Shown here one piece after another: positions 3,056 through 61,292 of a stretch of DNA of 61,432 bases; position 1 is the first letter of the stretch, and every line of letters begins with the position of its first letter. The notes under the pieces are model-generated. The model searched no databases. It was given only the letters and a program-made list of their open reading frames with translations, and was not told the origin of the DNA. The stretch is taken from the IMG/VR virus record IMGVR_UViG_3300031933_000107, positions 1-61,432 of that record. One strand, given 5' to 3'. Both the position numbers and the translations under genes were made by a program. The DNA is from a virus. Taxonomy: Duplodnaviria > Caudoviricetes.

Positions 3056-3658
3056 TCAGTTGCACTGCATCATATTACCGACGCTTTGACAGACTCGCCC
3101 ATCTTGCCTGATATGAGTGGGACCAGCACCGTGATTGTACCGTGTACCGTAATTATCCCAGCAACCGCCTGAATCACAGCTGGTAATATGCCCTGGCGCT
3201 CGTGCTGGAGCAGGTGCCGACGTTGGTACTGATGGTGCAGGAGTAGATGTTCCTGATGGAATCCCAGCACAGCGGGATAGGACGTCCCGTTGTGCTGCGG
3301 TTAGTCCGCGCGAACCTTTATGGACAGTCCCGGCTTCCTTGCAGACTCGCTCTCTGGCGGCAGCAGCTATTTTGTCTTGTTCATTTTGTTGTCGCCGTTG
3401 AGCAGCTTCAGCACTTCGTTGGTTTAGAGTTGCTTCTTTTCGGGCTTCCTCCGCCTTTAACTCGGCATAACGTTGCCTGTCTGCAGCAAAACTGGAAGTA
3501 TTTACCTTGGTTTCTCTACGCTGCTCGGCATCATTACCACACGGGGTCCTGGAGAAGGATTTCTTTCCTGTTTCAGGGTCTGTGCAGGTGTAGTAGGTGC
3601 CAGCAAGAGTGGTCGTTGAACAGCTGATTAAGATCAGCAAGGTTGCCATTTTTAGCAT
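3056..3658 (-). CDS. Exported DUF4124-like protein with Cys-rich C-terminus (moron)
   Basis: Signal peptide followed by YTCTDPETGKKSFSRTPC motif. Confidence 0.65.
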   Translation of the reverse strand: MLKMATLLILISCSTTTLAGTYYTCTDPETGKKSFSRTPCGNDAEQRRETKVNTSSFAADRQRYAELKAEEARKEATLNQRSAEAAQRRQQNEQDKIAAAARERVCKEAGTVHKGSRGLTAAQRDVLSRCAGIPSGTSTPAPSVPTSAPAPARAPGHITSCDSGGCWDNYGTRYNHGAGPTHIRQDGRVCQSVGNMMQCN

Positions 3659-3805
3659 ACTTGAACCTCTCCATGGTCGATCATATCCTTGCAGTATAAC
3701 CAGCTATAAATTTGATGTCAGGTAAGCGAACGCACAGAATCCTGCCCTACCATTACTCCAGCGCCTACACTTAATCACTGAATCAACAGGGTTAAAAGGT
3801 ATGGC

Positions 3806-3985
3806 ATGACCATCGCAGAACATATCACCGCCATCGTGACACTCTTCGTGCTGTCACTGCTCATCGTGTTTCATGGCAATGCGTTCCATCGGCGCAACCA
3901 GAACATGACCACCGTTCTGCTGGTCATGATCGGTATTCCGGTATTTCTCATGGTAATTGCCCTGTTTGGCGCCATCCTTGGCTGA
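3806..3985 (+). CDS. Small two-TM membrane protein (59 aa, absent from ORF track)
   Basis: MTIAEHITAIVTLFVLSLLIVFHG...TTVLLVMIGIPVFLMVIALFGAILG*; stops just before the convergent giant gene. Confidence 0.6.
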   Translation: MTIAEHITAIVTLFVLSLLIVFHGNAFHRRNQNMTTVLLVMIGIPVFLMVIALFGAILG

Positions 3986-3990
3986 TCAGT

Positions 3991-6900
3991 TTATCCTGCT
4001 TTCTGCTCCAGGCGCTCGATGACACCCTGAGTCAGCCGGTTTCGTTGTGCTGTCAGAATGTCGATTCGGGCTCGTTTGGCTTCAGGGCTGAGGCTTTTGT
4101 TTGCTTGTGCCAGTTTGATCTGAGCATTTATCTTGCTGAGCTGCTGCTGAGTCTTGTTCATCAACTGACGGTAGCGAAGCGTCCCGCGATTTGCATTCAT
4201 GAGCCCTGCCGCCGCTTCAAATTCACCAAGCTTACGCAGGTTTTGGATATCGGCGTACACCATATTCACTTCACGCAAACGGTCATAGAACTCTGTCCCG
4301 TATCGGGTGAACGACTTGGGAAGCGCATCGTTCCGGTAGAAGCGCCTGATTGGCTGATACTCATACCAAGCCCGGTCTGGCCGTTCCTCTCCTTTTGCTG
4401 CCTTCGATATGACATCCACAGTGCTTGCGCCCATTCCGCCTACCCAACCCAGATACCCCTGAATCAGAAAATCAACTTGGACAGGGCTCAGCACCAGATT
4501 GTCACTGAGCTGGCCAGTGGTTCCACGGGTGGCCGCTGCCAGCCATTTGGCCAGGTCTGTCGTGTTTGCCCGGGTGCGATATTCAGAACTCAGACGCAGC
4601 ATTGACAGTGATTCAATATCCCGGCCAGTAAAGCTGTCCTTGTTCGCATAGAGGTCAAACATTGGCTTTGCCGCCTGAGGGATCGGATTGAAGGCAAAGG
4701 TATCGGTCAGAATGTGCCCCAGGCGTTCTGCAAACAGCTTCCCGTCCTTGGTGTCATCTACCATCTGCTCCAGTGATCGCTCTGCCATGGTTGCGATAGC
4801 GCCGATCTCAAATGGTTTAGGAATAGTGAAATGCTGATCACCGACCCACACATGCCAGTAGGCATCTCGCTCCCATTCTTCCAATTCCTTGAAACGCTCA
4901 TCATCGGCATTGGCCAGATACAGAGCGATAGTAGCTGCAGTGAGTGATCCCACCACAATGGCGAATCGCTGCGCCGCCTGGCGGTCTGTTATGGACGATT
5001 CAGGACCGCCCATCATATGCTTGAGGACATTGAAACTCGGCTTTATGCCGCCGCGGTACAAACGATCCAAACCAACCAAGCGTGCATTCAAGAATGGCAC
5101 CACATCGGTCAGGAACTTCACCGCCGGCCATGCTCCCTGGCTGGAAAAGTCCATCAGGTCTCGCGCTTGAAAGGCTGCATAGAGCTTACCTTTTTCAAGG
5201 TTCTGCTGGTAAATGGCGGCGCGGTTCGAGTTCTCCATTGTGTCGCCGTAACCGGTGTACTGATCCCAAACTGCACGCCACAGGTGCACAACATCTTTCG
5301 GTGAGTCGATTGAGCGTGCACCTTTGATCTGGCGTTGAATACCTGCTTTCAGCGCATCGACATCTCCGGCGCCGTAGATATGGCCGAAGCTGAACGCTGC
5401 GCCAGAGGCAAGCATCTCTCCGCGGGTCCGGCCCTTGCTGTTTGGGCCACCATAAGCCTTGGCGCCCTTGAACACGTTGCCGAACGCGTTGTAACTCATA
5501 TTCCCAATTGCGATCGATTGCAGTGCGTCCCTCAATGTATTTGCGACCACAAATTGAGGCGAGATGGTTGTGAATGACGTGAAGGTGCGCTTGAAGCTGC
5601 GCATGATGCGACGGCTCATGGTATTGCTACCAATATCAGAAAGCGCACTCAGCGACTCAAAGACCAGATCGTCTTCAATGTCGTACCAGACTTTCTCGCC
5701 ACGATCGAGGACATAGGTTGAGGACTTCTTGTTGCGGCCAGCTTCAGTCGTGCGCGTCGCAATACCCACCATTTCAGCATTCTCAAGCGCCTGACGTGCT
5801 GCGTTATTCTTCAGGGAAGCTGACAACAGGTGCTGGAAATTCATCAGTGTGTTCTCCAGCAGGTCATTAACCTCCTGGGTACCGCCTTTCAGTCGCTTGT
5901 AAGCCTCCTGACGGCTCAGCCCTTTGGAGATATGGGGTCCTTTCGTGCCCTCTTCCTCCATCACGCGATAGAACGGGACATAAAACTCATCTCGCCACAT
6001 CTGCCGGTTATCAGGTGTGATAATGCCTGCCTCTTCAGCAATGGCCAGTACGTCGTCACGGTGCTGCTGAAACTGCGCGAATACTTGCTTGTAGAGAGTA
6101 GAGCGTTCCTTGCCTTCCTTGGTTTCCCCTTGATTCAACTCGACACCCGCAGCCACCTCTTCGGGGGTAAACAAGCGCTCATCTACAGCCGCAGCATCCA
6201 GTTCACGGTTGATGACGGTATCCGCATCCTTGATGGCTTTATTGATTTGGCGAATTTTGAGCGGTGGCAGATCCGGTTCCTTCAGCATATCCTGAAGGTT
6301 CGCTTTCTCTGCTTTGACTGCAGCTGCCCGGTCCCTTGCTGCTTGCGCTCTTTCCATAATGCTCTTGGATCGGTTGGCAGCGATCCAGCCCATGAAGCGC
6401 TCGATCTCTGCTGTAGAGCCCAGAGTTTTGAGTACATCCAGCAACCCTTTGTTGTCCCCCTCCTTCAGATCAATTACCCCGTCAGCATACTGAATGCGTC
6501 CATGGGTCAGCATCGCTGACAAGGCACCATCTGCAGCGTGTGACATTTTGGACAGAACCCATGAGCTGAAACGGGTGCGGTTCTCAACCACATCTGCGCC
6601 CTGGGCCTTTTTATCCAGCTCCAGCAATGAAGCGTATCGATCGACCATGCCCTGTCGAGTCTTCAGACCAATATTGTCTACCACTCCCGCAATGCGGTCA
6701 CGGATGCGCTCCTTGGTGGTTTTGGGACCTATCTTGTTCAGGAAACTGGACTGAGGATCAGACAGGTCATCGAATTGCTCTGCTGTCGCGGTGCGCGAAA
6801 AGCGCACATTCTGATCATCTTCTATACTGTCAGTAGAGGTGGTAATATCCATCTCGGTTGAGGGTGTGCGCGGGACATTTGACTTCCCGGTCAGGACACC

Positions 6901-22298: not shown

Positions 22299-23486
22299 TC
22301 ACGATACAGCTGTAACAATGCGCCGCTCCAACTCTACAGAGGTGCCAGCATTCCCGGCGATACCATCCATAACGCCACGCTGTAGCTCTACCAGTTCGCC
22401 AGATGCGGTACCCACGACATACCCATTGCCAGCCAGCCAAAGCGCCGCACCATCCCCGGCAATCCCCATCTCGCCTGCTGTATTGGCTGAGAGCTGGATT
22501 GCGCTACCGGGTACCGGCGGGCGTGAGGCTTTGCGCATAACGGTCATTTGGTCTGGGGTTGCGCCCTGAATGAAGGCTACATGATCGACTTGCCCAATCC
22601 AGATACCGCCGCTCACCGGCTGCACAAAGGTGATTCTCTGCGGCATAATGATGAAGCCGTGACGCTCATCGTGAAGGTGGTACGCCAGCGGTTCCGAGAA
22701 CCTGAGAATGTTTGCACGCGCATTGATCAGGCGGCCACGCCAGTAGTGAAGGAAGCTCCCGGTCGGCATTGGTGACAGGTACCGGAAGGCCGCAGTTCCT
22801 CCAAGATCCGGCATGGTGGTAATCGAAACAGTGGTCACTGACAGCGGGTAATCGTGCTCTTTGCGCAGCTCCCCGCCATCAGGATCGGTCAGGTACAGCC
22901 GGTATCCGGTCACGGACAGATCAAGGCAAAGGGGTATGGTAATCTCAAGCGATCCGTTATCCGGCAGAGTGATCTGTGTCATCTCAGACAGACCAGACTC
23001 CTGCCCGTCACGCAGCCATGCGACAGCGGCTCCGTAGCGCCCTGCTGCCAGCGATCCGCTACCCTCGCCCACCATTGGGGCGGCTGGTGTTTCGAGCGTC
23101 AGACGCCGCGCCTGCTGCCCGTCAAAGGCAAAGATGCCGGAAGGCGCAGCCACCACCACCTGATTGTTCAGCACAGCATGGAAGGCGTCACCCTCGCCAA
23201 CAACGGCCAGAACGGTATGCGTCCACTGATCGGGGTTGACCAGCACCCATTCATCGCCCAGCGTTGCAAAGGTATCGCCATGCAATGGGCTTTGCCATAG
23301 GTTCCGGTACGGCGTGTCTGTGACAAGCATCACACCTTTGCGCATCAGTATCTCGCCGGAAGCGTTGATATCCACGTTGACAGCATCACGCACATAATGG
23401 CGCCGGGCATCGCCCTGTTGGTGGAGTCGCTTATCTTCGATCTCGGTGCTCATGCCGGTAATTGGCATCAATGAAATATCCGGCAT
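22299..23486 (-). CDS. Putative tail tubular/stabilisation protein
   Basis: 395 aa, beta-rich; VRDAVNVDI..G...RKG N-terminus. Confidence 0.6.
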   Translation of the reverse strand: MPDISLMPITGMSTEIEDKRLHQQGDARRHYVRDAVNVDINASGEILMRKGVMLVTDTPYRNLWQSPLHGDTFATLGDEWVLVNPDQWTHTVLAVVGEGDAFHAVLNNQVVVAAPSGIFAFDGQQARRLTLETPAAPMVGEGSGSLAAGRYGAAVAWLRDGQESGLSEMTQITLPDNGSLEITIPLCLDLSVTGYRLYLTDPDGGELRKEHDYPLSVTTVSITTMPDLGGTAAFRYLSPMPTGSFLHYWRGRLINARANILRFSEPLAYHLHDERHGFIIMPQRITFVQPVSGGIWIGQVDHVAFIQGATPDQMTVMRKASRPPVPGSAIQLSANTAGEMGIAGDGAALWLAGNGYVVGTASGELVELQRGVMDGIAGNAGTSVELERRIVTAVS

Positions 23487-26400
23487 CAGAATGCCCCCTT
23501 GCGGTATTGGTTTGCGTTACCGTCCGGTCGTATGTAATGAACGGCGTGTTTAATATCCGGTGTACCTGCCTGCTCGAATTCAAATCCTGCGGCCTGTACC
23601 TCCTGCTCTTTCGGTGCGGGCATGTAGGCGTTGCGTACCCTCATGCGCTGATCGAAAGCCTCCAGCTGGTACTCGCTGATAAAGGCATTGAATCCATCCA
23701 TCACAACGTCACGCACCCGCCTGGAAACCCACGGCTCAGGCACGACCGACTGATCCATGCCTTCAGGTATGGTTGGCATCAGCGGCCCTACGCGCAGCCC
23801 TTGCCACATATACGGGCCGTCTCCCCACTTGCGGGTACCCATCAATGCAGCGTCACGGCCCTGCGGGTGGATCTGCCGGTGGAGGTGCTCAATCAGGGAC
23901 TTGCTGAACTCGGTTGCAAGTAGCGCCTTTGGTTTTACTGCCCTCGGCCCTGGCGGGACGTAGTGCCAAACCTCTGGCCTGCCGTAGACCGCCATGTTTT
24001 CAGAATCGAATTGCACAAGCTCGCGTGTTCCGGGTACCTCATGGAAGCCGTTACGCAGCGTATTGAACCCATCAGGCAGAATGTAGTTGGTTCCGAGCTG
24101 AACATCAGGGCGCCCGACAAATATCTCGGTGTATCCATTGCGACGGGTTACTATGGTTCGGTGTCGCAGCGTTACGGCCGCTCGCCCGAATACGGCAGTC
24201 GGAGTCCTGCGGTAGCCGTCAATAGGGTGTAGCCCTGGAGTTCCTACAGGGTGGTTTATCTTTGCCTGCTGCGTAGCCTCGGTCATGGCGTATATCGTGT
24301 GCGGTGACACTCTAACCCGCTCCGGCTCGAATACCTCATCGTTCGGGAATGGCTCAACCAGCAGGCTTCGCACCTTCAGGCCAACATACGGCTCGCCAAT
24401 GTTCAGTTCGTAATACCCTGGCTCGACACGGATAGAGTTTGATTCGACAAGGTGGCCGCCAAACTTGGTAGCTGGATCTTCCTGCTGCACATAGATCACC
24501 TGTTGGTTGATAACAGGCATCGGCACCTGCCGGTTTGTCTCGTCCTTGGGCGGCTCAATGCCGTAGCCTTCGCCAATGGGTGTTCCGTCAGGCTCATATT
24601 CAGAATCAAGGCTGATTGTCTGCAGCGAATACGGCGGCGCCCCTGTTCTGATAACTGTTAACTTGTCGCCAAACGAAAGCGCCCGGATGCCAGTAATCGG
24701 TATCGTCCTGTCTCGATCCGCGATAGATGCCCTGCCGAACAGCGCCGTAACTGCCCCGTCCATATTGATAGGACGCCATTCAAGGCGTACATGCGTATCG
24801 CCAAATTCATCTGAGGCCCGGCCACGGGTGCCCAGCTCGGGCGTAACATTGTGAACACGCGGATAGCCGTAGTCGTTGCGCAGCGTCCAGCGAGGCGTTA
24901 TCCGGTTGAAGCGAATTGTCAGTGAGGCAAGCCCTATGCCGCTTGAATCGTAGCCGATACCATCCACATAGCGGGTGTATAGCTTGACGTTCTGAGGCTC
25001 AATTCTGGGCGCATCAATGCTGTATCGCTTCTCGATAGACAACTCTCGGATGCGATCCGCCACCATCGGGTATCCCAGCACGGCAGCATCATAGCCGCCA
25101 ATCCAGTTGTAATACCGGCGCGTGTTCTCGACAGTGTGCTGATCCCCGGCCTGATCACTGAAGCCTTCAGGTCTGACCACCATCGCATCATTGGCGATAA
25201 CAGACCATGATGAAATGTAGGGCGCCTCCATGCCTTCAATGCGCAGCAGTCGGTAACGCATTGCAACCATGCTGGATTCGTTAATGGTTAGGCCATCAAT
25301 CCCTTCCGGCAGTATCGGCCTGGCAGCATTAAACACCTGCTGATCGCCAATACGGGCAGCGTTCTGCCCTGTGGTTCTCAGGCTCTTTGTCCGGTTCTCT
25401 ATGGCAGTCCACTGCGGCCAGCGAGGGGGGTTAAGCTGACTGTCTGGGTCGAAGTACATTGTGATGTACTGGCGAAGATTCCAGATACTGACCTTGCCCC
25501 AGCGGTCAGCCGGTTGCGCCCACTTCGCGCTATCAGGCAGAACCGTTTGCAGGCTGTTGTATGCCAGCGCCTGCCCGTACAGGCCGGTAAAGCCAAGCGG
25601 ATAGACGGTCGTGATTGGTGGAATGACACGGGTACCAAATCGCGCAGCATCAAACCCTATCGGCAACAGGATGCGGGTGCCGCCTACCATGTGGCCGGTC
25701 GCAAACTCAGTGAATATGCTCCTGGGTTCAATCTGCCTGTCAGCATTTGAAAGCATCGGCCTTCCGTGCCGGTCAAGCTGCGAACCAAACGCCAACATGT
25801 AGCGGCGTCCGTGCTCAATAAGCGGCTTGCTGTACCGGCTCTGGTCCTTGCCTTCATGCTCGATGTGGCGGTACCTGAACCAGATTGAAGGCGCGCCATG
25901 AAGGTCGGCATTCTTGCCGGAGGCAAACAGCGTTCGGATTCGGTGCCAAACAGTAGGGCTGCCGGTTAACCCTGCCATGCCAGCCGGTGAGATCGAAGGC
26001 GGCTGCGTGACCTTTGCTGTCCCTATTGCCAGCTGATCTGATCCCCTGCCGTAGATGTACCGGATGCGGAAAGAGATAAACTGAGAGACTGGTGTTAACG
26101 GCTCGACACCATCAGGAATGATTGAGGGCGTCTTGTTGCGGATACTGGTTTCACCGGACAGTAGCGCATCAAAACCTGCAGCCGGAACATACCGCCTATT
26201 GCTGCGAAACTCCGCCCAATCTGAACCTTCAAAGGCGTAAAGCCCATACGGGTAAATGAAGGCTGATAAGTTTCGAGCTGACACATCACCGAAGATGCCT
26301 GTTCCAAGTACAAGGCCGGGATACACCCTGCGGGTCGGGTCAAAGACTTTAGGGTATCCAATAATCTCACCAGTGCCTAGGCCTTGAGGCTCAACAAAGG

Positions 26401-27502
26401 TAGTCCAAAAATCAATCTCAGGATCGCCAAACCTTGACGAAACCCAGCCTTGAGGACGTGGCGGGAATTGAACCAGTGGGCCGCTGATAGCCGTGCCGTA
26501 AATGCTCGACGGGTACACCATGCGCGGTGATACATTTGGACTCCCCGCACCGAGCCAGGGCATCCCTTTAACCGTCACGAACTGGTCTGCGGTGGTGTTT
26601 ACTACAAGCGCCCGGCCATAACTCGCCTGATCACGCCCCGATACGTCTACATGCTTGACGCCACCAAGTACGGCAGGCTTTCCGTGTGCGTCAGACTTCC
26701 AGTCGTGCGCCCACAGGAATGACAGATAGTTGTAGAGAACAGGGTGTCCGTAATAGGTTTCAACAAGACCGGATGGATGAATGCCGTGCGCTGCAAGTCG
26801 CACATTATGATGGGCGCCAATACCTTCTGGCGGTAGACCCTGAGGCGAAACAAATTCAAGCATCCGCTTAACAGACGGCGTTGAAAGCTCAAGTGAATCC
26901 CATCCCGTTACAGGTACCTGAGATTCTTCTGCGGGCAGCGTCCACGCAGCATTCAACACCCATTGAGCGGGGTTGTAGTCGGACTTTTTCCCCACCCAGT
27001 TTGCGTCAAGCACCCACTCAGGGAAAGCGTATTCCCACGGGTGTAGAACGTATATCTTGCCCTGAATCAGGGATGTGTTCGCACCCTGGGGCCGTATGGT
27101 TTCAGTCCATGTGAGGATAGGTTCAGGAACTGGCTCGTCCTGAATACCAAGAGGCGATATGTAGGTGAGGTTGGCCCAGGTTGCCGTGATACCGAATTGA
27201 GGGCTGCTGTACTGATCAGCACCTACCCAGCTTGCATTGATAACGAACTGTTGTGGAAGGTAATCACCGGCCCTGCCGATTGTCATCCAATCAGCTACAG
27301 CACCTGGTGCGATCCCTTGCGTCGCCGCAATCTCAGTCCATTTCAGTAAAACAGACTCGACAGGCGGACAAGGCACGCCCTCTGCTGCGAGATATCTCGG
27401 GTTACTTCCCCAGAATGCCGCAATGGTTGAAGCCGGTGCCGGGTAGCTGTCAGAGCCAAGCCATGTAGGGTTGATCATGGCAATCGGCGCACTGTAGCTC
27501 AT
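23486..27502 (-). CDS. Large repetitive tail (fibre-like) protein
   Basis: 1338 aa with repeated I.P.G......G.P.V units and N-terminal NAxW repeats. Confidence 0.7.
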   Translation of the reverse strand: MSYSAPIAMINPTWLGSDSYPAPASTIAAFWGSNPRYLAAEGVPCPPVESVLLKWTEIAATQGIAPGAVADWMTIGRAGDYLPQQFVINASWVGADQYSSPQFGITATWANLTYISPLGIQDEPVPEPILTWTETIRPQGANTSLIQGKIYVLHPWEYAFPEWVLDANWVGKKSDYNPAQWVLNAAWTLPAEESQVPVTGWDSLELSTPSVKRMLEFVSPQGLPPEGIGAHHNVRLAAHGIHPSGLVETYYGHPVLYNYLSFLWAHDWKSDAHGKPAVLGGVKHVDVSGRDQASYGRALVVNTTADQFVTVKGMPWLGAGSPNVSPRMVYPSSIYGTAISGPLVQFPPRPQGWVSSRFGDPEIDFWTTFVEPQGLGTGEIIGYPKVFDPTRRVYPGLVLGTGIFGDVSARNLSAFIYPYGLYAFEGSDWAEFRSNRRYVPAAGFDALLSGETSIRNKTPSIIPDGVEPLTPVSQFISFRIRYIYGRGSDQLAIGTAKVTQPPSISPAGMAGLTGSPTVWHRIRTLFASGKNADLHGAPSIWFRYRHIEHEGKDQSRYSKPLIEHGRRYMLAFGSQLDRHGRPMLSNADRQIEPRSIFTEFATGHMVGGTRILLPIGFDAARFGTRVIPPITTVYPLGFTGLYGQALAYNSLQTVLPDSAKWAQPADRWGKVSIWNLRQYITMYFDPDSQLNPPRWPQWTAIENRTKSLRTTGQNAARIGDQQVFNAARPILPEGIDGLTINESSMVAMRYRLLRIEGMEAPYISSWSVIANDAMVVRPEGFSDQAGDQHTVENTRRYYNWIGGYDAAVLGYPMVADRIRELSIEKRYSIDAPRIEPQNVKLYTRYVDGIGYDSSGIGLASLTIRFNRITPRWTLRNDYGYPRVHNVTPELGTRGRASDEFGDTHVRLEWRPINMDGAVTALFGRASIADRDRTIPITGIRALSFGDKLTVIRTGAPPYSLQTISLDSEYEPDGTPIGEGYGIEPPKDETNRQVPMPVINQQVIYVQQEDPATKFGGHLVESNSIRVEPGYYELNIGEPYVGLKVRSLLVEPFPNDEVFEPERVRVSPHTIYAMTEATQQAKINHPVGTPGLHPIDGYRRTPTAVFGRAAVTLRHRTIVTRRNGYTEIFVGRPDVQLGTNYILPDGFNTLRNGFHEVPGTRELVQFDSENMAVYGRPEVWHYVPPGPRAVKPKALLATEFSKSLIEHLHRQIHPQGRDAALMGTRKWGDGPYMWQGLRVGPLMPTIPEGMDQSVVPEPWVSRRVRDVVMDGFNAFISEYQLEAFDQRMRVRNAYMPAPKEQEVQAAGFEFEQAGTPDIKHAVHYIRPDGNANQYRKGAF

Positions 27503-27505
27503 CGC

Positions 27506-28741
27506 TTACGGCACAAGCTCAGGCATGGCATTGGCAAAGAAAAGATCGTTTAGCTGTTCGCCATCCTCTGTCATAAACTGAACATCGCAAGGGCTTGCGT
27601 CTGGCAGATCCATTGAATAGTTGCCGGTTGTTGCGTCAGATTCAACTTGTGCCAACAGTACCCCTGTTGCCCTGTCATGCGCCCTGACTGTTCGCTTTGC
27701 GGGATTATTGCTGATGTCGCGCACGGTGCCTGTTAATCGGCCAGTATTCTTCTGCGCGATCGCCATGTGCCCATATCCATCGGGCAATATATCGAACGCA
27801 GGATTAGATGGGTACTGCTCCCATGTTGTTGCATCAAACACATTTAGACCAGCATCCCCATACGATCTATACGCTTTAACCAACAGCTGGTTTGACGCAG
27901 CATCAAAACAGCAGTGCGTTACTTGCCTTGTACCCCAACCATTATATGGCCATATATCCGTCTCGGTGCCTGCCTCATAATCAATCTCACCAACTTGCCT
28001 GCGGCTGCTGCTGGCAGCGCCATACCAATAAACAACTGATTTACTCTTATTCGGGTTGGGTATTATCCCGCCAGCCGTCCTATCAACATAATTGTTATTG
28101 GAATCCGTGTAGGTGTTCACGACTGAAATCGTTGCCGCATCTACCGCCGCTACATAATAAGGATAGCCGTTACCACAACAGAAGATCAGGCTATCATCCG
28201 CTGTAAAGCACACATGATATTTGCCTGCCCCGACATTTCCCGACACGTCAGCATAAGACCAATCATTGGTGTTATACACTCGCAAATACGGGGACGAAGA
28301 ATGTACGACCGCAAGCATTGACCCATCATGGCTGAATGACACACCATAAACAGTCCCCAGCCCTTGCGTGTTAACTGCCTGAACGCTCAGGTCTGCCCAA
28401 GCGTACACCATCAGTTTTGCGCCGCTGGAGCCACCCGTTGCGATTAAATCGTTACTGGCCGTGCATTGGCAAAGATAACCAACACCTGGCGGAACGCTCG
28501 GTGTTGTGTAGGTATTCAGATCTTCAATATCCAAAAAAACTGAAAGATATTGGTAGTTGCTGATTACGCAGCGTGTTGCATCAGGTGTAATGGCAACGAA
28601 TGGTTTGTATCCACTGCTATACGAAAAAATTGGAGATGCTGTTCCAATTACGCTATCAAAAGAAGCGGGGGCGCCATCGAGCAGATTGAATGATGCAGCG
28701 TTAACACCATTTCCCGAGCCTGTATAAATCAGCTTTTTCAT
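27506..28741 (-). CDS. Beta-propeller (WD40/YncE-like) protein with C-terminal adaptor domain; candidate receptor-binding protein
   Basis: VYGVSFSHDGSMLAVVHSSSPYLRVY blades; C-terminal GRLTGTV...RTVRAHDRATG; visibly AT-richer than neighbours. Confidence 0.65.
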   Translation of the reverse strand: MKKLIYTGSGNGVNAASFNLLDGAPASFDSVIGTASPIFSYSSGYKPFVAITPDATRCVISNYQYLSVFLDIEDLNTYTTPSVPPGVGYLCQCTASNDLIATGGSSGAKLMVYAWADLSVQAVNTQGLGTVYGVSFSHDGSMLAVVHSSSPYLRVYNTNDWSYADVSGNVGAGKYHVCFTADDSLIFCCGNGYPYYVAAVDAATISVVNTYTDSNNNYVDRTAGGIIPNPNKSKSVVYWYGAASSSRRQVGEIDYEAGTETDIWPYNGWGTRQVTHCCFDAASNQLLVKAYRSYGDAGLNVFDATTWEQYPSNPAFDILPDGYGHMAIAQKNTGRLTGTVRDISNNPAKRTVRAHDRATGVLLAQVESDATTGNYSMDLPDASPCDVQFMTEDGEQLNDLFFANAMPELVP

Positions 28742-29040
28742 ATCGCTTCACCCATGCAGCTCTCGTTCGGCCAATAGCCTTTATCCGCGTGCCACTGCTT
28801 GTACTTCTCCAGCAGGGTTTCGGCATCCACTTCGCGCACGAACCGCTCGACATACTGGATCGTCCAGCGTTCCGAGTCGCCATCCGGCGGACAGGGGCTG
28901 CGCTCATGGACGAACATCTGGAACGGCGGCAGTGCGGCCAGTGCCCGCCAGTCAATCACCGGTACCGGCTCATTCATGGTCACTGGATTGGCTTCAATGC
29001 CCTGGGCAGAAACTTTGATCGGTGGAGGCTTCTGGCTCAT
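28738..29040 (-). CDS. Hypothetical phage protein
   Basis: 100 aa, ATGA-coupled on both sides. Confidence 0.7.
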
Positions 29041-29711
29041 TCATTCAGCTCCTTAATGCGTTTCTCGACTTTGCGCCTCTCGGCTGGCGTCAGCGAATCC
29101 AGCAGGTCAATCACTTTGTCCACCATCCTGATACCATGCGGGTCTTTCCTGCTTGTCCCGACACCGGTCCAAAGCTCAAGGTTCTCGGGCCGGTTGTCGT
29201 CACGCTTGCCGTTTTTATGGTGGACGCGCTCTGACTTTTTGAGTGGGCGGCCAAGCACTTGCTCCATGACAAGGCGGTGCTCCATGACTTTCTTGCCGTC
29301 ACGCCTTACCATGATGTATCCACCTGTTGATCGGATCTTGTCTGCAACAACTCTGGCATCAAGCGTGATCTCGGGCTTCTTCATCCCCATCCTTCTTGCC
29401 TTACCAGAGCACTTTACAGAGCAATAGGCCCGGGTCTTTCCATGCGGCCTTTCAAACGTGCTGCCACAAACGGCACATACACACGTCTTGTCTTTTGATG
29501 TTCCTTTGGCCTTGCATTGAACGCTGCAGTATTTCTGCTGCGCATACTTTGCCTTGAACTCTATGCCGCAGCATTCGCAGCTCTTCAGGTTTTTTCTTGT
29601 TGTTGCGTACCAGCATTCTTTGCAGCAATAGGATTGCTCAGCTCTCTTGGGCCGAAATACCTTACCGCAATGACTGCACTCTCTATCAGGCAATGAGCGT
29701 AATGCCGCCAT
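29037..29711 (-). CDS. Free-standing HNH homing endonuclease with three N-terminal Cys4 zinc-ribbon repeats
   Basis: [14 protein letters not shown]...[19 protein letters not shown]; three CxxCG..F...YC(S/C)xxC repeats. Confidence 0.92.
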
Positions 29712-29721
29712 AATTGATCCC

Positions 29722-29774
29722 CCTGTGATTCAAAATCTCAGGTAAATTATATCATTCAGCGGCACTACTGTCCC
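29722..29774 (-). promoter_or_regulatory. Sigma70-type promoter and RBS-overlapping hairpin of the HNH gene
   Basis: GGGACA (29769-29774), 17 bp, TATAAT (29746-29751) with extended -10 TG; hairpin CCTGAGATT/AATCACAGG at 29722-29742 overlaps the AGGGGG RBS. Confidence 0.7.
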
Positions 29775-29788
29775 ATGTTAATACACCC

Positions 29789-30489
29789 TCACACCTTGAA
29801 TATTTTATTTGTGCCGTTGTCCCAGGTCACTATGCCGAACGTTCGGAATGGCTCGCTACTTCCATTCCCGCCAATTCCATTTGGCAGCTACATATCGCTA
29901 TGTAGAGCAGACTATCTCTTCAGCCAAGTGCGGCTGCTGTCGCGCGCTTCGGGCCGCTTGGCCCTACTCCCTTTCGGGATAGTCGTTACACCCCGCCCTT
30001 TCGGGCCTGGCACGGTATTGTCTCTGTCGAGATGTTCACCGTTTTCACGCGATCCACCCCCAGCCTCAAAGGCCGCAACGGTCTGGGGGGCACCTTTGTT
30101 TAGTGGTCTTTCTGACCACACGGGGTAATGTCCCCGCCGTTCGGCGTGATAGGAAGGCCGGTAGCCGTGTCGATATAGGCGATCAGCGGGCTGGTACTCT
30201 CGGTACCGGTGTCGGAGTAGATCACGATGGACTCGATACTCGCCCCACTCACGCTGGTGAATGTGCAATCGGCCGCATCGGCAGCGCCGCCGGTAGTTGC
30301 CTTGTTGGTCAGCGTTACCGGGCCTGCAATGCGAGCAGAGGTCGGAATGTCAGATAGGTACTGGTGAACGGCGGTCTGAGGCGTGTAGGCACCGGTATCC
30401 ACCAGAATGCACTTGATGGTATCGGTCATCCAGTTGATCTGCGCCTCAAGGAAGCGCTGGCGTGCAAAGTCGAAAAGGGTATTAGCCAT
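29789..30489 (-). CDS. Intron-split virion protein, join(30489..30128, 29834..29789), 135 aa
   Basis: Exon 1 ends ...GLPITPNGGD plus AT; exon 2 is C plus IVTWDNGTNKIFKV*; the joined end reads NGGDIIVTWDNGTNKIFKV. Confidence 0.88.
29835..30127 (-). ncRNA. Group I self-splicing intron (IA-type, no internal ORF, 293 nt)
   Basis: Exon 1 ends in U and the intron ends in G; R element UGUAACGACUA (29980-29990); S element AAGAGAUAGUC (29910-29920); P3, P4, P5, P6, P7.1, P7.2, P8 and P9 stems can all be drawn. Confidence 0.92.
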
Positions 30490-30561
30490 GTGCGGTATCT
30501 CCTGCCTTTGGCATGGGAATCGGTTACATGGCGCATTGTCGGGTAGGAAATGGCAGCGCAG

Positions 30562-30574
30562 CCAACCCTATAGG
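30562..30574 (-). promoter_or_regulatory. Late-promoter motif copy
   Basis: CCAACCCTATAGG on plus strand; GACAAT 21 bp downstream on minus strand. Confidence 0.7.
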
Positions 30575-30592
30575 GGGCCGTGCGCTGCAGGG

Positions 30593-60159: not shown

Positions 60160-61292
60160 ACAGACCAAGAAACAAGCAGAACAAGGATCTGCCCCCGAAT
60201 CTGTACGCAGATCGCCGGGGCCGTATTACCTACTATGCCTACAAGCACCCGGCCACCGGTAAGCGGCACGGCATGGGTGCGAACCGCACTCAAGCAATTT
60301 TGGCGGCCAAGCAGCTCAATACCATGCTGTCGGCAGAGCTATGTCTGGTTGACCGTGTGCTGGGCGGTACCAATACCCTGACACTTTGGATCAAGAAATA
60401 CCTGACTATCCGTGAAGCTGAAAATATCGCCCCGGATACCGTGCGATCACTGAAGGTTAACCTGAAGGCAATAGATGCTCACTTGGGCACTTTGCCCATT
60501 GCGGACCTGTCGGTATTCCATGTTGCTGAGTTCCTGAATAAGTGGACCAGTGAAGGCAAGATGACAACAGCCAAGCATTTACGCAGCACGCTGATCAAGT
60601 GCCTGGACTACGCGATCAGCAACGGCCTGATTGATGACAACGTGGCCAGTAAGACACTACCCATTACCGCCCAGGTTAAGCGCCACCGGCTAACCAAAGA
60701 GCAGTTTGACGCCATCTACAAGCAGGCGCCGATCCATGTGCGCAATGCAATGATGCTTGGGCTTCTGACGCTGCAGCGCCGCGAGGATATCGTCAATATG
60801 AAGTTCACCGATATCCGTGATGGTTATCTGCATGTTGTGCAAAGCAAGACCGCCAAGGCTCGCAATGGTAAGCGTGCCGACTCGCAGAACGTATCCGCGC
60901 ATCTGCGCATTGAAGTAACAGAGCAGCTTGCCGCCGTGATCCAGTCATGCCGCAGTACGCGCATTGTATCGAAGTACCTGGTTCACCAGATCAGGACGCA
61001 GCGCTTTGGTGGTGCCAAGTCTGGCGAAATCCGCAAAGGTGAACAGCTGGATGCCGATGTGATCACCCGGGGCTTTCGCAATGCGAGGGATAAGGCCGGA
61101 CTGTTCAGTGATGTGCCTTCACGCGAACGCCCCAGCTTTCATGAGATACGCGCATTGGGTGCCCACCTATACCGAGATCAAGGCATCAATCCTCAGGCAT
61201 TGCTGGGTCACACAAGCGAGAAAATGACAGCCCTGTATCTGGATGGCCATGGCGAAGAGTGGACCGTGGTACAAGCCAATCTGCAGGTGTGA
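60156..61292 (+). CDS. int: Tyrosine integrase with lambda-like N-terminal arm-binding domain
   Basis: LPPNLY..YY.Y.HP.TGK; TLQRREDI (R), KT, FHEIRAL (HxxR), LLGH, Y. Confidence 0.95.
   Translation: MNRPRNKQNKDLPPNLYADRRGRITYYAYKHPATGKRHGMGANRTQAILAAKQLNTMLSAELCLVDRVLGGTNTLTLWIKKYLTIREAENIAPDTVRSLKVNLKAIDAHLGTLPIADLSVFHVAEFLNKWTSEGKMTTAKHLRSTLIKCLDYAISNGLIDDNVASKTLPITAQVKRHRLTKEQFDAIYKQAPIHVRNAMMLGLLTLQRREDIVNMKFTDIRDGYLHVVQSKTAKARNGKRADSQNVSAHLRIEVTEQLAAVIQSCRSTRIVSKYLVHQIRTQRFGGAKSGEIRKGEQLDADVITRGFRNARDKAGLFSDVPSRERPSFHEIRALGAHLYRDQGINPQALLGHTSEKMTALYLDGHGEEWTVVQANLQV

Follow-up and report, generated by a model that had tools for sequence, protein, structure and literature searches.

A conserved virion gene of a temperate, F116-like phage is split near its 3' end by a group I intron that lacks an open reading frame (ORF), and a free-standing HNH endonuclease gene lies 123 nucleotides (nt) beyond the intron. 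The phage is represented by the IMG/VR virus record IMGVR_UViG_3300031933_000107, analysed over positions 1 to 61,432 (the window; 61.4 kb, with an estimated completeness of 97%). The two elements are probably a selfish pair lodged in the conserved 3' end of this small gene, and comparison with a diverged relative indicates that the intron, the second exon and the DNA-binding two-thirds of the nuclease gene have recently passed as one tract between phages. The full mechanism of collaborative (trans) homing, in which the nuclease would cut intronless alleles and the intron would be copied in during repair, stands evenly in the balance for this locus.

The split gene, its intron and the adjoining nuclease

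The window groups with phage F116, its capsid (PF13252), SU10-type adaptor (PF24175) and phrog_644 genes lying in the F116 order; a tyrosine integrase at 60687-61244 and the occurrence of homologous loci within large bacterial contigs indicate that the phage is temperate. Every gene of the locus is on the minus strand. Exon 1 (30128..30489, 362 nt, codons 1-120 plus 2 nt) encodes a homologue of F116 gp48 (phrog_644, E 9.6e-45), a protein labelled "minor tail subunit" in some records, and its product is 86% identical in amino acids to F116 gp48 over residues 1-121 (tblastn). Without splicing, the frame of exon 1 continues into the intron as an ORF (30489..30100) that stops at 30100. With this unspliced ORF as the tblastn query against phages, coverage was at least 80% in 448 of 449 matching records, and the alignment ended at residue 121 in all 60 records listed. 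The missing end is found in exon 2 (29789..29834, 46 nt), which holds the last base of codon 121, 14 codons and TGA; its translation is IVTWDNGTNKIFKV*, the last 14 residues being identical to the C-terminus of F116 gp48 and all seven nucleotide differences from F116 being synonymous. The joined exons (362 + 46 = 408 nt) equal the F116 gp48 gene in length (NC_006552 33550-33957), and removal of the intron restores the exact host frame in the window as well as in L005 and L019 (loci of relatives carry the prefix L, sequencing runs the prefix X).

The window's intron, here called type A, occupies 29835..30127 (293 nt), directly after a U (GACAU^), and ends in G; the exon-final U and the intron-final G recur in all three type A copies compared. 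A sequence-only reading of this DNA had described the intron as ORF-less, which is confirmed: ORFs of at least 30 amino acids (aa) crossing it gave no Pfam match, and no plausible or remnant ORF was seen within it. Rfam RF00028 matches 30164..29888 with 42.1 bits (E 1.5e-8), which is below the gathering score of 50; the type A copies at the same site in L005 and L019, 84% and 75% alike to the window's, reach 50.5 and 62.2 bits. Compensatory changes were found in 21 of 87 predicted pairs across the three copies (covariation term -8.63 kcal/mol), and because these pairs stay paired through two-sided changes the fold is under selection. The core resembles that of introns in phage DNA polymerase genes (T3/T7-like and others), with about 72-82% likeness over some 100-160 nt.

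The pairing at the 5' splice site is less regular. A candidate internal guide sequence, GUGCCCC (30087..30093, intron +35..+41), would pair with the exon stretch GGGGACAU and place a U.G pair at the splice site; in this P1 helix 83% of cells are paired and the U.G is present in all three copies, together with one invariant A.C mismatch. In a rival hairpin at the junction, exon -10..-5 and intron +3..+8 pair completely (100%), with one compensatory change, and the splice-site U falls in a six-base loop. The P1 of type A is non-canonical or split between these two candidate pairings. An additional helix joins exon 1 positions -18..-12 (30146..30139) to the 3' end of the intron (its last six bases) plus the first base of exon 2 (29840..29834); it is fully paired in the window, L005 and L019, synonymous Pro/Asn codon changes in the exon are matched by changes in the intron, and the covariation score of the compensatory changes in L005 and L019 was reached by only 4 of 500 shuffles. 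A role of the exon 2 ATA codon in P10 pairing was considered and rejected, as the window's candidate P10 pairs at three of five positions and would pair better with ATT. None of the sequencing runs containing the stretch is recorded as RNA. Two runs presumed to be RNA matched 0.08-0.10 of the words, and one of them, X19, covered short conserved pieces of the intron core only and looked like DNA; four joints with short sides (22-34 nt) at 90% likeness in X19 are given no interpretation here.

The HNH gene (29037..29711) encodes a protein of 224 aa in which three zinc ribbons at the N-terminus precede a C-terminal HNH_3 domain and a helical tail. The gene starts 78 nt beyond the stop codon of the gp48 homologue, counted from the final base of that codon to the ATG (a 77-nt spacer), and its own stop overlaps the ATG of the gp49 homologue (ATGA). 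The protein scores 40.5 bits against PF13392 HNH_3 (cut-off 24.8, residues 145-182), and its best PHROG family is phrog_20891 (5e-25). Among 14 aligned relatives the 12 cysteines of the three CxxC...CxxxC repeats are invariant, as are H164, H165, N173 and N177. The distance from the stop codon and the domain make-up given by the sequence-only reading both hold. An AlphaFold model (mean predicted local distance difference test score 79, predicted template modelling score 0.33) contains three hairpin-plus-helix modules and a C-terminal beta-beta-alpha part. A sequence search of the PDB returned a single weak zinc-finger match (E 0.007), and a Foldseek search of the PDB with the whole model gave no match at E <= 0.001, the best being tandem zinc-finger proteins at E 0.05-0.1. 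The three zinc ribbons probably read DNA.

It had also been claimed that the nuclease gene carries its own promoter. A consensus-like site is indeed present at 29746..29774 (GGGACA, a 17-nt spacer and TATAAT preceded by TG; 10 of 12 consensus matches), but the scan found two sites where shuffled sequence gave 1.3, which is no rarer than chance. The TATAAT box is present in the spacers of L019, L085, L316 and L003 and missing from those of L005, L232, L236 and L233. Another repeated element was noted after the gene: a copy of TGGGAYAAYGG, the sequence of the gene's codons 125-128, occurs within 130 nt past the stop in 9 of 23 HNH-bearing loci versus 5 of 120 loci without HNH. It is inverted in L003, L013, L308, L243, L039 and L240 and direct in L232 and L237, the copy in L237 resembling a remnant of the gene's end; the window's own version (29777..29767) keeps 9 of 11 letters and overlaps the -35 hexamer. 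It may serve as a binding site, form a hairpin or be left over from the gene's end; the idea that it is an operator-like copy of the target is kept as a side observation only.

Exchanged tracts and a possible homing mechanism

The window and L004 share a module of 1743 nt (30491..28751) that is 96.6% alike; upstream of 30491 the two are 76% alike, and beyond 28751 no likeness is detected by blastn. Within the module, a tract of 932 nt (29254..30185) is free of mismatches; it begins 58 nt before the end of exon 1 and runs through the intron, exon 2 and the spacer as far as HNH codon 152. Its flanks are 4-10% diverged, with 12 mismatches in the 306 nt of 30491..30186 and about 50 in the 503 nt of 29253..28751; by our own arithmetic, the probability of 932 nt without a mismatch at the lower flank rate is about 1e-16. 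The comparison thereby points to recent transfer, as one tract, of the intron, exon 2 and the DNA-binding part of the nuclease gene between diverged phages. The tract ends where the catalytic domain begins. The proposal of the sequence-only reading that intron, exon 2 and HNH travel as one block is accordingly upheld for the first two, but the block stops at HNH codon 152 and the pair is not obligate. The L004-type module, with the same mismatch positions, was recovered in contigs of runs X3 and X6 (wastewater or bioreactor). In this form it appears in 15 wastewater or bioreactor runs of 2025 (X3-X17, possibly one campaign), with 0.61-0.71 of the sampled words over window positions 28802-30491, and it reaches very high contig depth in X3.

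Natural alleles without and with the intron can be compared in two lineages. L003 and L004 are 94-97% alike upstream and alike again in the catalytic half of HNH; L003, in which the site is uninterrupted, differs from L004 by the intron and by the N-terminal module of the nuclease. Since an insertion necessarily ends an alignment, the end of likeness at the intron site is partly trivial, and therefore exon 1 was compared directly with exon 2. For L005, likeness to L008 and L006 is 95% in exon 1 and 74-78% in the exon 2 stretch (p 2e-5 and 2e-4), and it returns at HNH codon 160; no such step was found between L019 and L057 (79% and 76%). Tracts of this shape would be expected if the DNA broke near the intron site and was mended from a donor with the intron, the exchange resolving at the first shared sequence downstream; HNH is the presumed cutter.

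On these grounds the following course may be proposed. The ORF-less intron interrupts codon 121, and splicing of the predicted RNA would restore the 135-codon frame. In a mixed infection, or on infection of a lysogen, HNH would nick or cut intronless alleles within the conserved coding stretch for GGDIIVTWDNG (the sequence-only reading had placed the putative cut near GACAT^CATAGTG), and repair from the intron-plus genome would copy the intron and the tract down to HNH; the intron, by interrupting the recognition site, would protect the genome that carries it. In a recipient with a related HNH already in place, the tract would resolve in the shared catalytic half, and intron gain would be accompanied by a swap of the DNA-binding module.

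Such a swap is suggested by the nuclease family itself. At the same spot, some relatives (L003 at 3463-4305, L013, L068, L308, L243 and L429 at 3309-4172) carry an alternative head made of a zinc finger and a helix-turn-helix (HTH) domain, HTH_3, on a catalytic half nearly identical to that of the three-ribbon form. The DNA-binding module is thus seen, in the compared sequences, to be exchanged within one HNH nuclease family and between close lineages.

Base composition gives a second view of transfer. Exon 2 had been noted as AT-rich and unlike exon 1, and its guanine plus cytosine (G+C) fraction is indeed 0.43 versus 0.58, with ATA, ACA and AAT codons. The same stretch in F116 has 0.47, however, and third-position G+C in the window is 0.67 in codons 121-135 versus 0.71 in codons 1-110, so that the contrast comes mostly from the encoded amino acids. 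In codons 121-135 of high-GC alleles, third-position G+C amounts to 0.87 when HNH is absent (n=44) and to 0.56 when HNH is present and the intron is not (n=7; p 6e-4). As the shift is present in HNH-bearing intronless alleles, it follows the nuclease cassette and not the intron; AT-rich gene ends of this kind fit co-conversion from donors of lower G+C.

Co-occurrence of intron and nuclease among relatives

The co-occurrence of intron and HNH was tabulated in loci found through the split gene alone. A search of IMG/VR with exon 1, of which the best 80 of 392 relatives were kept, and 59 genome contigs gave 139 loci in total; 131 were judged by script, L016 was left undecided and 7 more were too short or too distant. 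Both intron and HNH were present in four of the 131 (L004, L005, L019 and L316), the intron only in one (L077), HNH only in ten and neither in 116. HNH thus accompanies 4 of 5 intron alleles versus 10 of 126 intronless alleles (Fisher p 4e-4); inspection of L016 by eye and with Rfam revealed two introns and no HNH, which brings the first figure to 4 of 6. Two features of a collaborative pair can be read from these data: a conserved gene holds an ORF-less intron and has a free-standing endonuclease gene nearby, and the two elements are inherited jointly, as seen in the 932-nt tract and in the association, with L077 and L016 as exceptions. In the sample of loci, the independence of intron and HNH is rejected statistically and the pair is not obligate.

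Searches with HNH added 15 IMG/VR loci and 77 metagenome loci, and a maximum likelihood tree was built from 28 HNH proteins. The relatives harbour a second intron, type B, which has no blastn likeness to type A, scores 50-95 bits with RF00028 and interrupts the gene after GGNGAT, its site lying 2 nt upstream of that of type A. In the clade of the window's HNH (support 97/97), all nine rows stand beside an intron at this site, of type A in the window, L004, L005, L232 and L236 and of type B in L085, L316, L233 and L234; the partial L019 (type A) also fits this pattern. All five rows of the clade with zinc-finger/HTH heads are intronless, and introns accompany two of nine rows (L237 and L240) in two other three-ribbon clades. 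The presence of two unrelated introns, at sites only 2 nt apart, next to a single HNH clade suggests selection to interrupt this stretch.

Several observations weigh against collaborative homing at this locus. A related HNH lies beside an intact site in L003, L006, L008, L009, L013, L039, L068, L071, L308 and L358; since these make up 10 of the 126 intronless alleles, self-protection in this family does not depend on an intron. Type B introns are found with no accompanying HNH in L077 and L016, with another HNH clade in L237 and with a zinc-finger/HTH HNH in L429. The counts take in related contigs (L004, L231, X3 and X6 form one lineage, and the HNH rows of L233 and L234 are identical), and for that reason the p-values overstate independence. 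Because the perfect tract stops inside the HNH gene, transfer does not always include the complete nuclease gene. Nor is an AT shift clear in exon 2 of the window itself. To these may be added the Rfam score below the gathering level, the irregular P1 and the absence of recorded RNA runs described above.

Some of these observations would be accounted for if HNH homed without the intron, cutting HNH-less genomes near its own insertion point (the gp48 stop or the gp48-gp49 spacer). The HNH insertion itself would then spare the carrier, and the intron, about 120 nt away, would only be co-converted and would confer no immunity. The intact sites beside related HNHs agree with such hitch-hiking, as does the AT-richness of third positions at the gene's end, which follows HNH without the intron and, in carriers of the zinc-finger/HTH form (L013), begins only near codon 130. 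Likewise, comparison of L429 with L077 shows that the HNH cassette starts right past the stop codon and that likeness returns some 930 nt later. The nine of nine interrupted rows in the window's clade, however, involve two unrelated introns 2 nt apart, for which a single founder offers no explanation, and the L003/L004 and L005/L008 tracts start at the intron site and end inside HNH, as fits a break near the intron site. Hitch-hiking of the intron is considered a possible but unlikely explanation.

It could also be that the intron spreads by reverse splicing or ordinary recombination, having once carried its own endonuclease or never needed one, and that the HNHs are independent invaders of a hot spot, the association reflecting physical linkage and shared descent. 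Nuclease turnover has been proposed for such loci in the available text of Barth et al. (2023, PMC10448857). In the present data, introns at no fewer than four sites with guides matching the local exon, tandem introns in L016 and L237, the type B introns without HNH in L077 and L016, and the shared rank order of divergence of intron, HNH and host gene (L004, L005, L019) all speak for it. This explanation is nevertheless judged distinctly improbable, given the strength of the association in an unbiased sample (p 4e-4), the perfect 932-nt tract spanning both elements between diverged flanks, and the lack of a remnant ORF in the intron.

A last alternative holds that HNH is not selfish and serves the phage as a domesticated function, either associated with packaging or as a weapon against competing phages. 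The overlap of its stop with the start of the next gene (ATGA) and the invariance of its catalytic residues in 14 relatives would agree with this. Its position, between homologues of the virion genes gp48 and gp49, downstream of the capsid and adaptor genes and with no adjoining terminase, does not, and a packaging-associated HNH acting as terminase partner was rejected on this position and on the absence of the gene from 116 of the 131 judged relatives. Cultured F116-like phages among the matches listed align with exon 1 only, for a query spanning the HNH gene, and among the listed HNH relatives from cultured phages the best is 37% identical; the gene is thus sporadic among the sequenced relatives of this phage. 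With its DNA-binding module also swapped between close lineages, domestication appears very remote.

The search was widened in three further ways. Ten ORFs from eight HNH-less loci with long gaps after the gene matched no nuclease family in Pfam. A scan of IMG/VR for the junction pattern returned 18 stretches; only three of them, all already-known contigs, encode the gene, and no match to gp48, HNH or an intron turned up in the remaining 15. The pattern drawn from the type B core lacked specificity, hitting at least 115 IMG/VR stretches, none with the gene. At greater distance, homologues of the gp48 gene in L089 and L358 are likewise followed by a related HNH. In Mycobacterium phage Jabbawokkie (L368 1868-3037), gp29 (phrog_644, 1.2e-40) is directly followed by gp30, a phrog_20891 HNH (1.9e-92), so that the adjacency of the two families recurs in an actinophage.

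Relation to known systems, further introns and the genomic neighbourhood

Collaborative or trans homing has been described for psbA of cyanophage S-PM2 with F-CphI and for T3/T7-like DNA polymerase genes in the available portions of PMC3984707 and PMC10448857, which confirms the precedent named by the sequence-only reading. As far as the accessible text goes, the logic proposed for S-PM2 (Zeng, Bonocora & Shub 2009) is the same, the target of the nuclease being the intron insertion site. F-CphI, also free-standing, has an Endo VII-type catalytic motif (PMC6083498, in the part available), unlike the window enzyme with its HNH_3 domain and three zinc ribbons; the host gene is psbA there and a virion gene of a temperate F116-like phage here; and cleavage is reported for F-CphI, whereas the window pair is known from comparison of sequences. 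In the T3/T7-like polymerase genes (Bonocora & Shub 2009, in the excerpts at hand), a free-standing enzyme, likewise of HNH type, and an intron converge on one site. The host gene differs, nuclease and intron are here found in one genome, 123 nt apart, and several intron lineages and sites are here combined with swappable DNA-binding modules of the nuclease.

Two other phage systems bear a resemblance. In T4, according to the available part of Wilson & Edgell (2009, PMC2790892), mobE lies beside the nrdB intron with its defunct I-TevIII, an arrangement termed "trans homing". There too a free-standing HNH adjoins an intron-containing gene and has been proposed to mobilise the intron and its flanks by gene conversion; the nrdB intron, however, keeps a degenerate endonuclease ORF, in contrast to the ORF-less intron of the window, and T4 is a virulent phage studied by experiment, while the present phage is temperate and its case comparative. 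The terminase intron of ICP1 adjoins a T5orf172 nuclease gene, and nuclease genes have been described at the boundaries of genetic exchange, in the accessible text of the Barth et al. paper cited above. The likeness lies in an intron within a morphogenesis-related gene, a nuclease gene beside it and not inside it, and nuclease genes at the edges of exchanged tracts, as at the tract ends in the window; the nuclease family, the host gene and the lytic lifestyle of ICP1 are different. By analogy with these cases, from which its defining biochemistry is borrowed, the window pair would join the known collaborative arrangement. In agreement with the sequence-only reading, the literature searched did not describe such an intron/nuclease pair for virion genes of temperate phages, F116-like or other, and searching it for F116 together with group I introns yielded only an unrelated paper.

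Evidence on how mobile group I introns form and how nuclease-less introns persist has so far come from few phage cases, to which this locus adds a virion gene from a temperate phage family also found as prophages in many Proteobacteria. The natural before/after alleles (L003 vs L004, L005 vs L008) indicate which substrates to compare, and if HNH cuts the insertion site, the intron as a means of immunity and the turnover of nuclease specificity could both be addressed in a single gene. By marking the edges of exchanged tracts, the locus also bears on the mosaicism of phage structural modules.

The last 24 codons of the gene hold at least four intron sites, with up to three interruptions per gene. 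Besides the sites of types A and B, introns are inserted after TGGGAT (L237 and L240) and after AATGGT (L016). Type B has a canonical P1 whose changes follow those of the exon by covariation (GGGGAU/GUCCCC, GGUGAU/GGUCACC and GGAGAU/GUCUCC), and the guides of types B and C fit GGGGAU and UGGGAU. The concentration of sites supports the view that this 3' stretch is under pressure to be interrupted, and site choice guided by RNA would fit it equally; that at least four sites are used, with guides matching the exons, means that RNA rather than the nuclease may choose them, which also counts against the homing mechanism proposed above. In L016 (3412-4060), two full introns of 83 and 88 bits follow each other in tandem about 23 nt apart. 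L237 (515-1250) has a mini-insert and two introns, and L240 (275-630) an intron at the TGGGAT site only.

Mini-inserts of 49-67 nt, with an in-frame stop and a final G, lie directly after GGCTT (codon 112) of the gp48 homologue, at L077 3337-3387, L016 3337-3387, L429 ~2837-2887, L085 2462-2528, L237 ~515-563 and L435 ~1795-1843. At their start the P1+P2 part of the Rfam consensus is matched with high posterior, and P10 is present without a P3-P9 core. The guide pairs with both flanking exons and shows a compensatory change (CGGU/ACCG, AUUGG/CCAAU). In all five judged cases the insert stands 24 nt upstream of a complete type B intron, and it was never seen in type A or intronless alleles. It may represent a coreless mini-intron spliced by the core of the neighbouring intron, for which no precedent was found in the literature searched; if this is true, it would be, as far as that literature goes, a new kind of dependent group I intron. 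More tentatively, and on balance improbably, the last 24 codons might be the scene of an arms race in which modular HNHs drive the insertion of ORF-less introns that give immunity, with mini-introns depending on their neighbours. In L435, from about 1860, unrelated sequence of opposite strand takes over precisely where type B introns insert, and the assembly may have broken there at a polymorphic site.

Around the pair, gene spacing varies between relatives. Only about 100 nt (window 30490-30592) separate the adaptor gene from the split gene; in F116 this place is taken by a CsrA-like gene, which overlaps the start of gp48, and in L004 the interval is about 1.8 kb longer than in the window. 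The gene after HNH is the F116 gp49 homologue (28738..29040; phrog_11163, E 2.3e-31), at the right end of the module shared with L004. Downstream of it, a 411-aa beta-propeller-like protein (27506-28741) and a 1338-aa protein (23486-27502), neither with blastn likeness to L004, form the variable tail end of the module.

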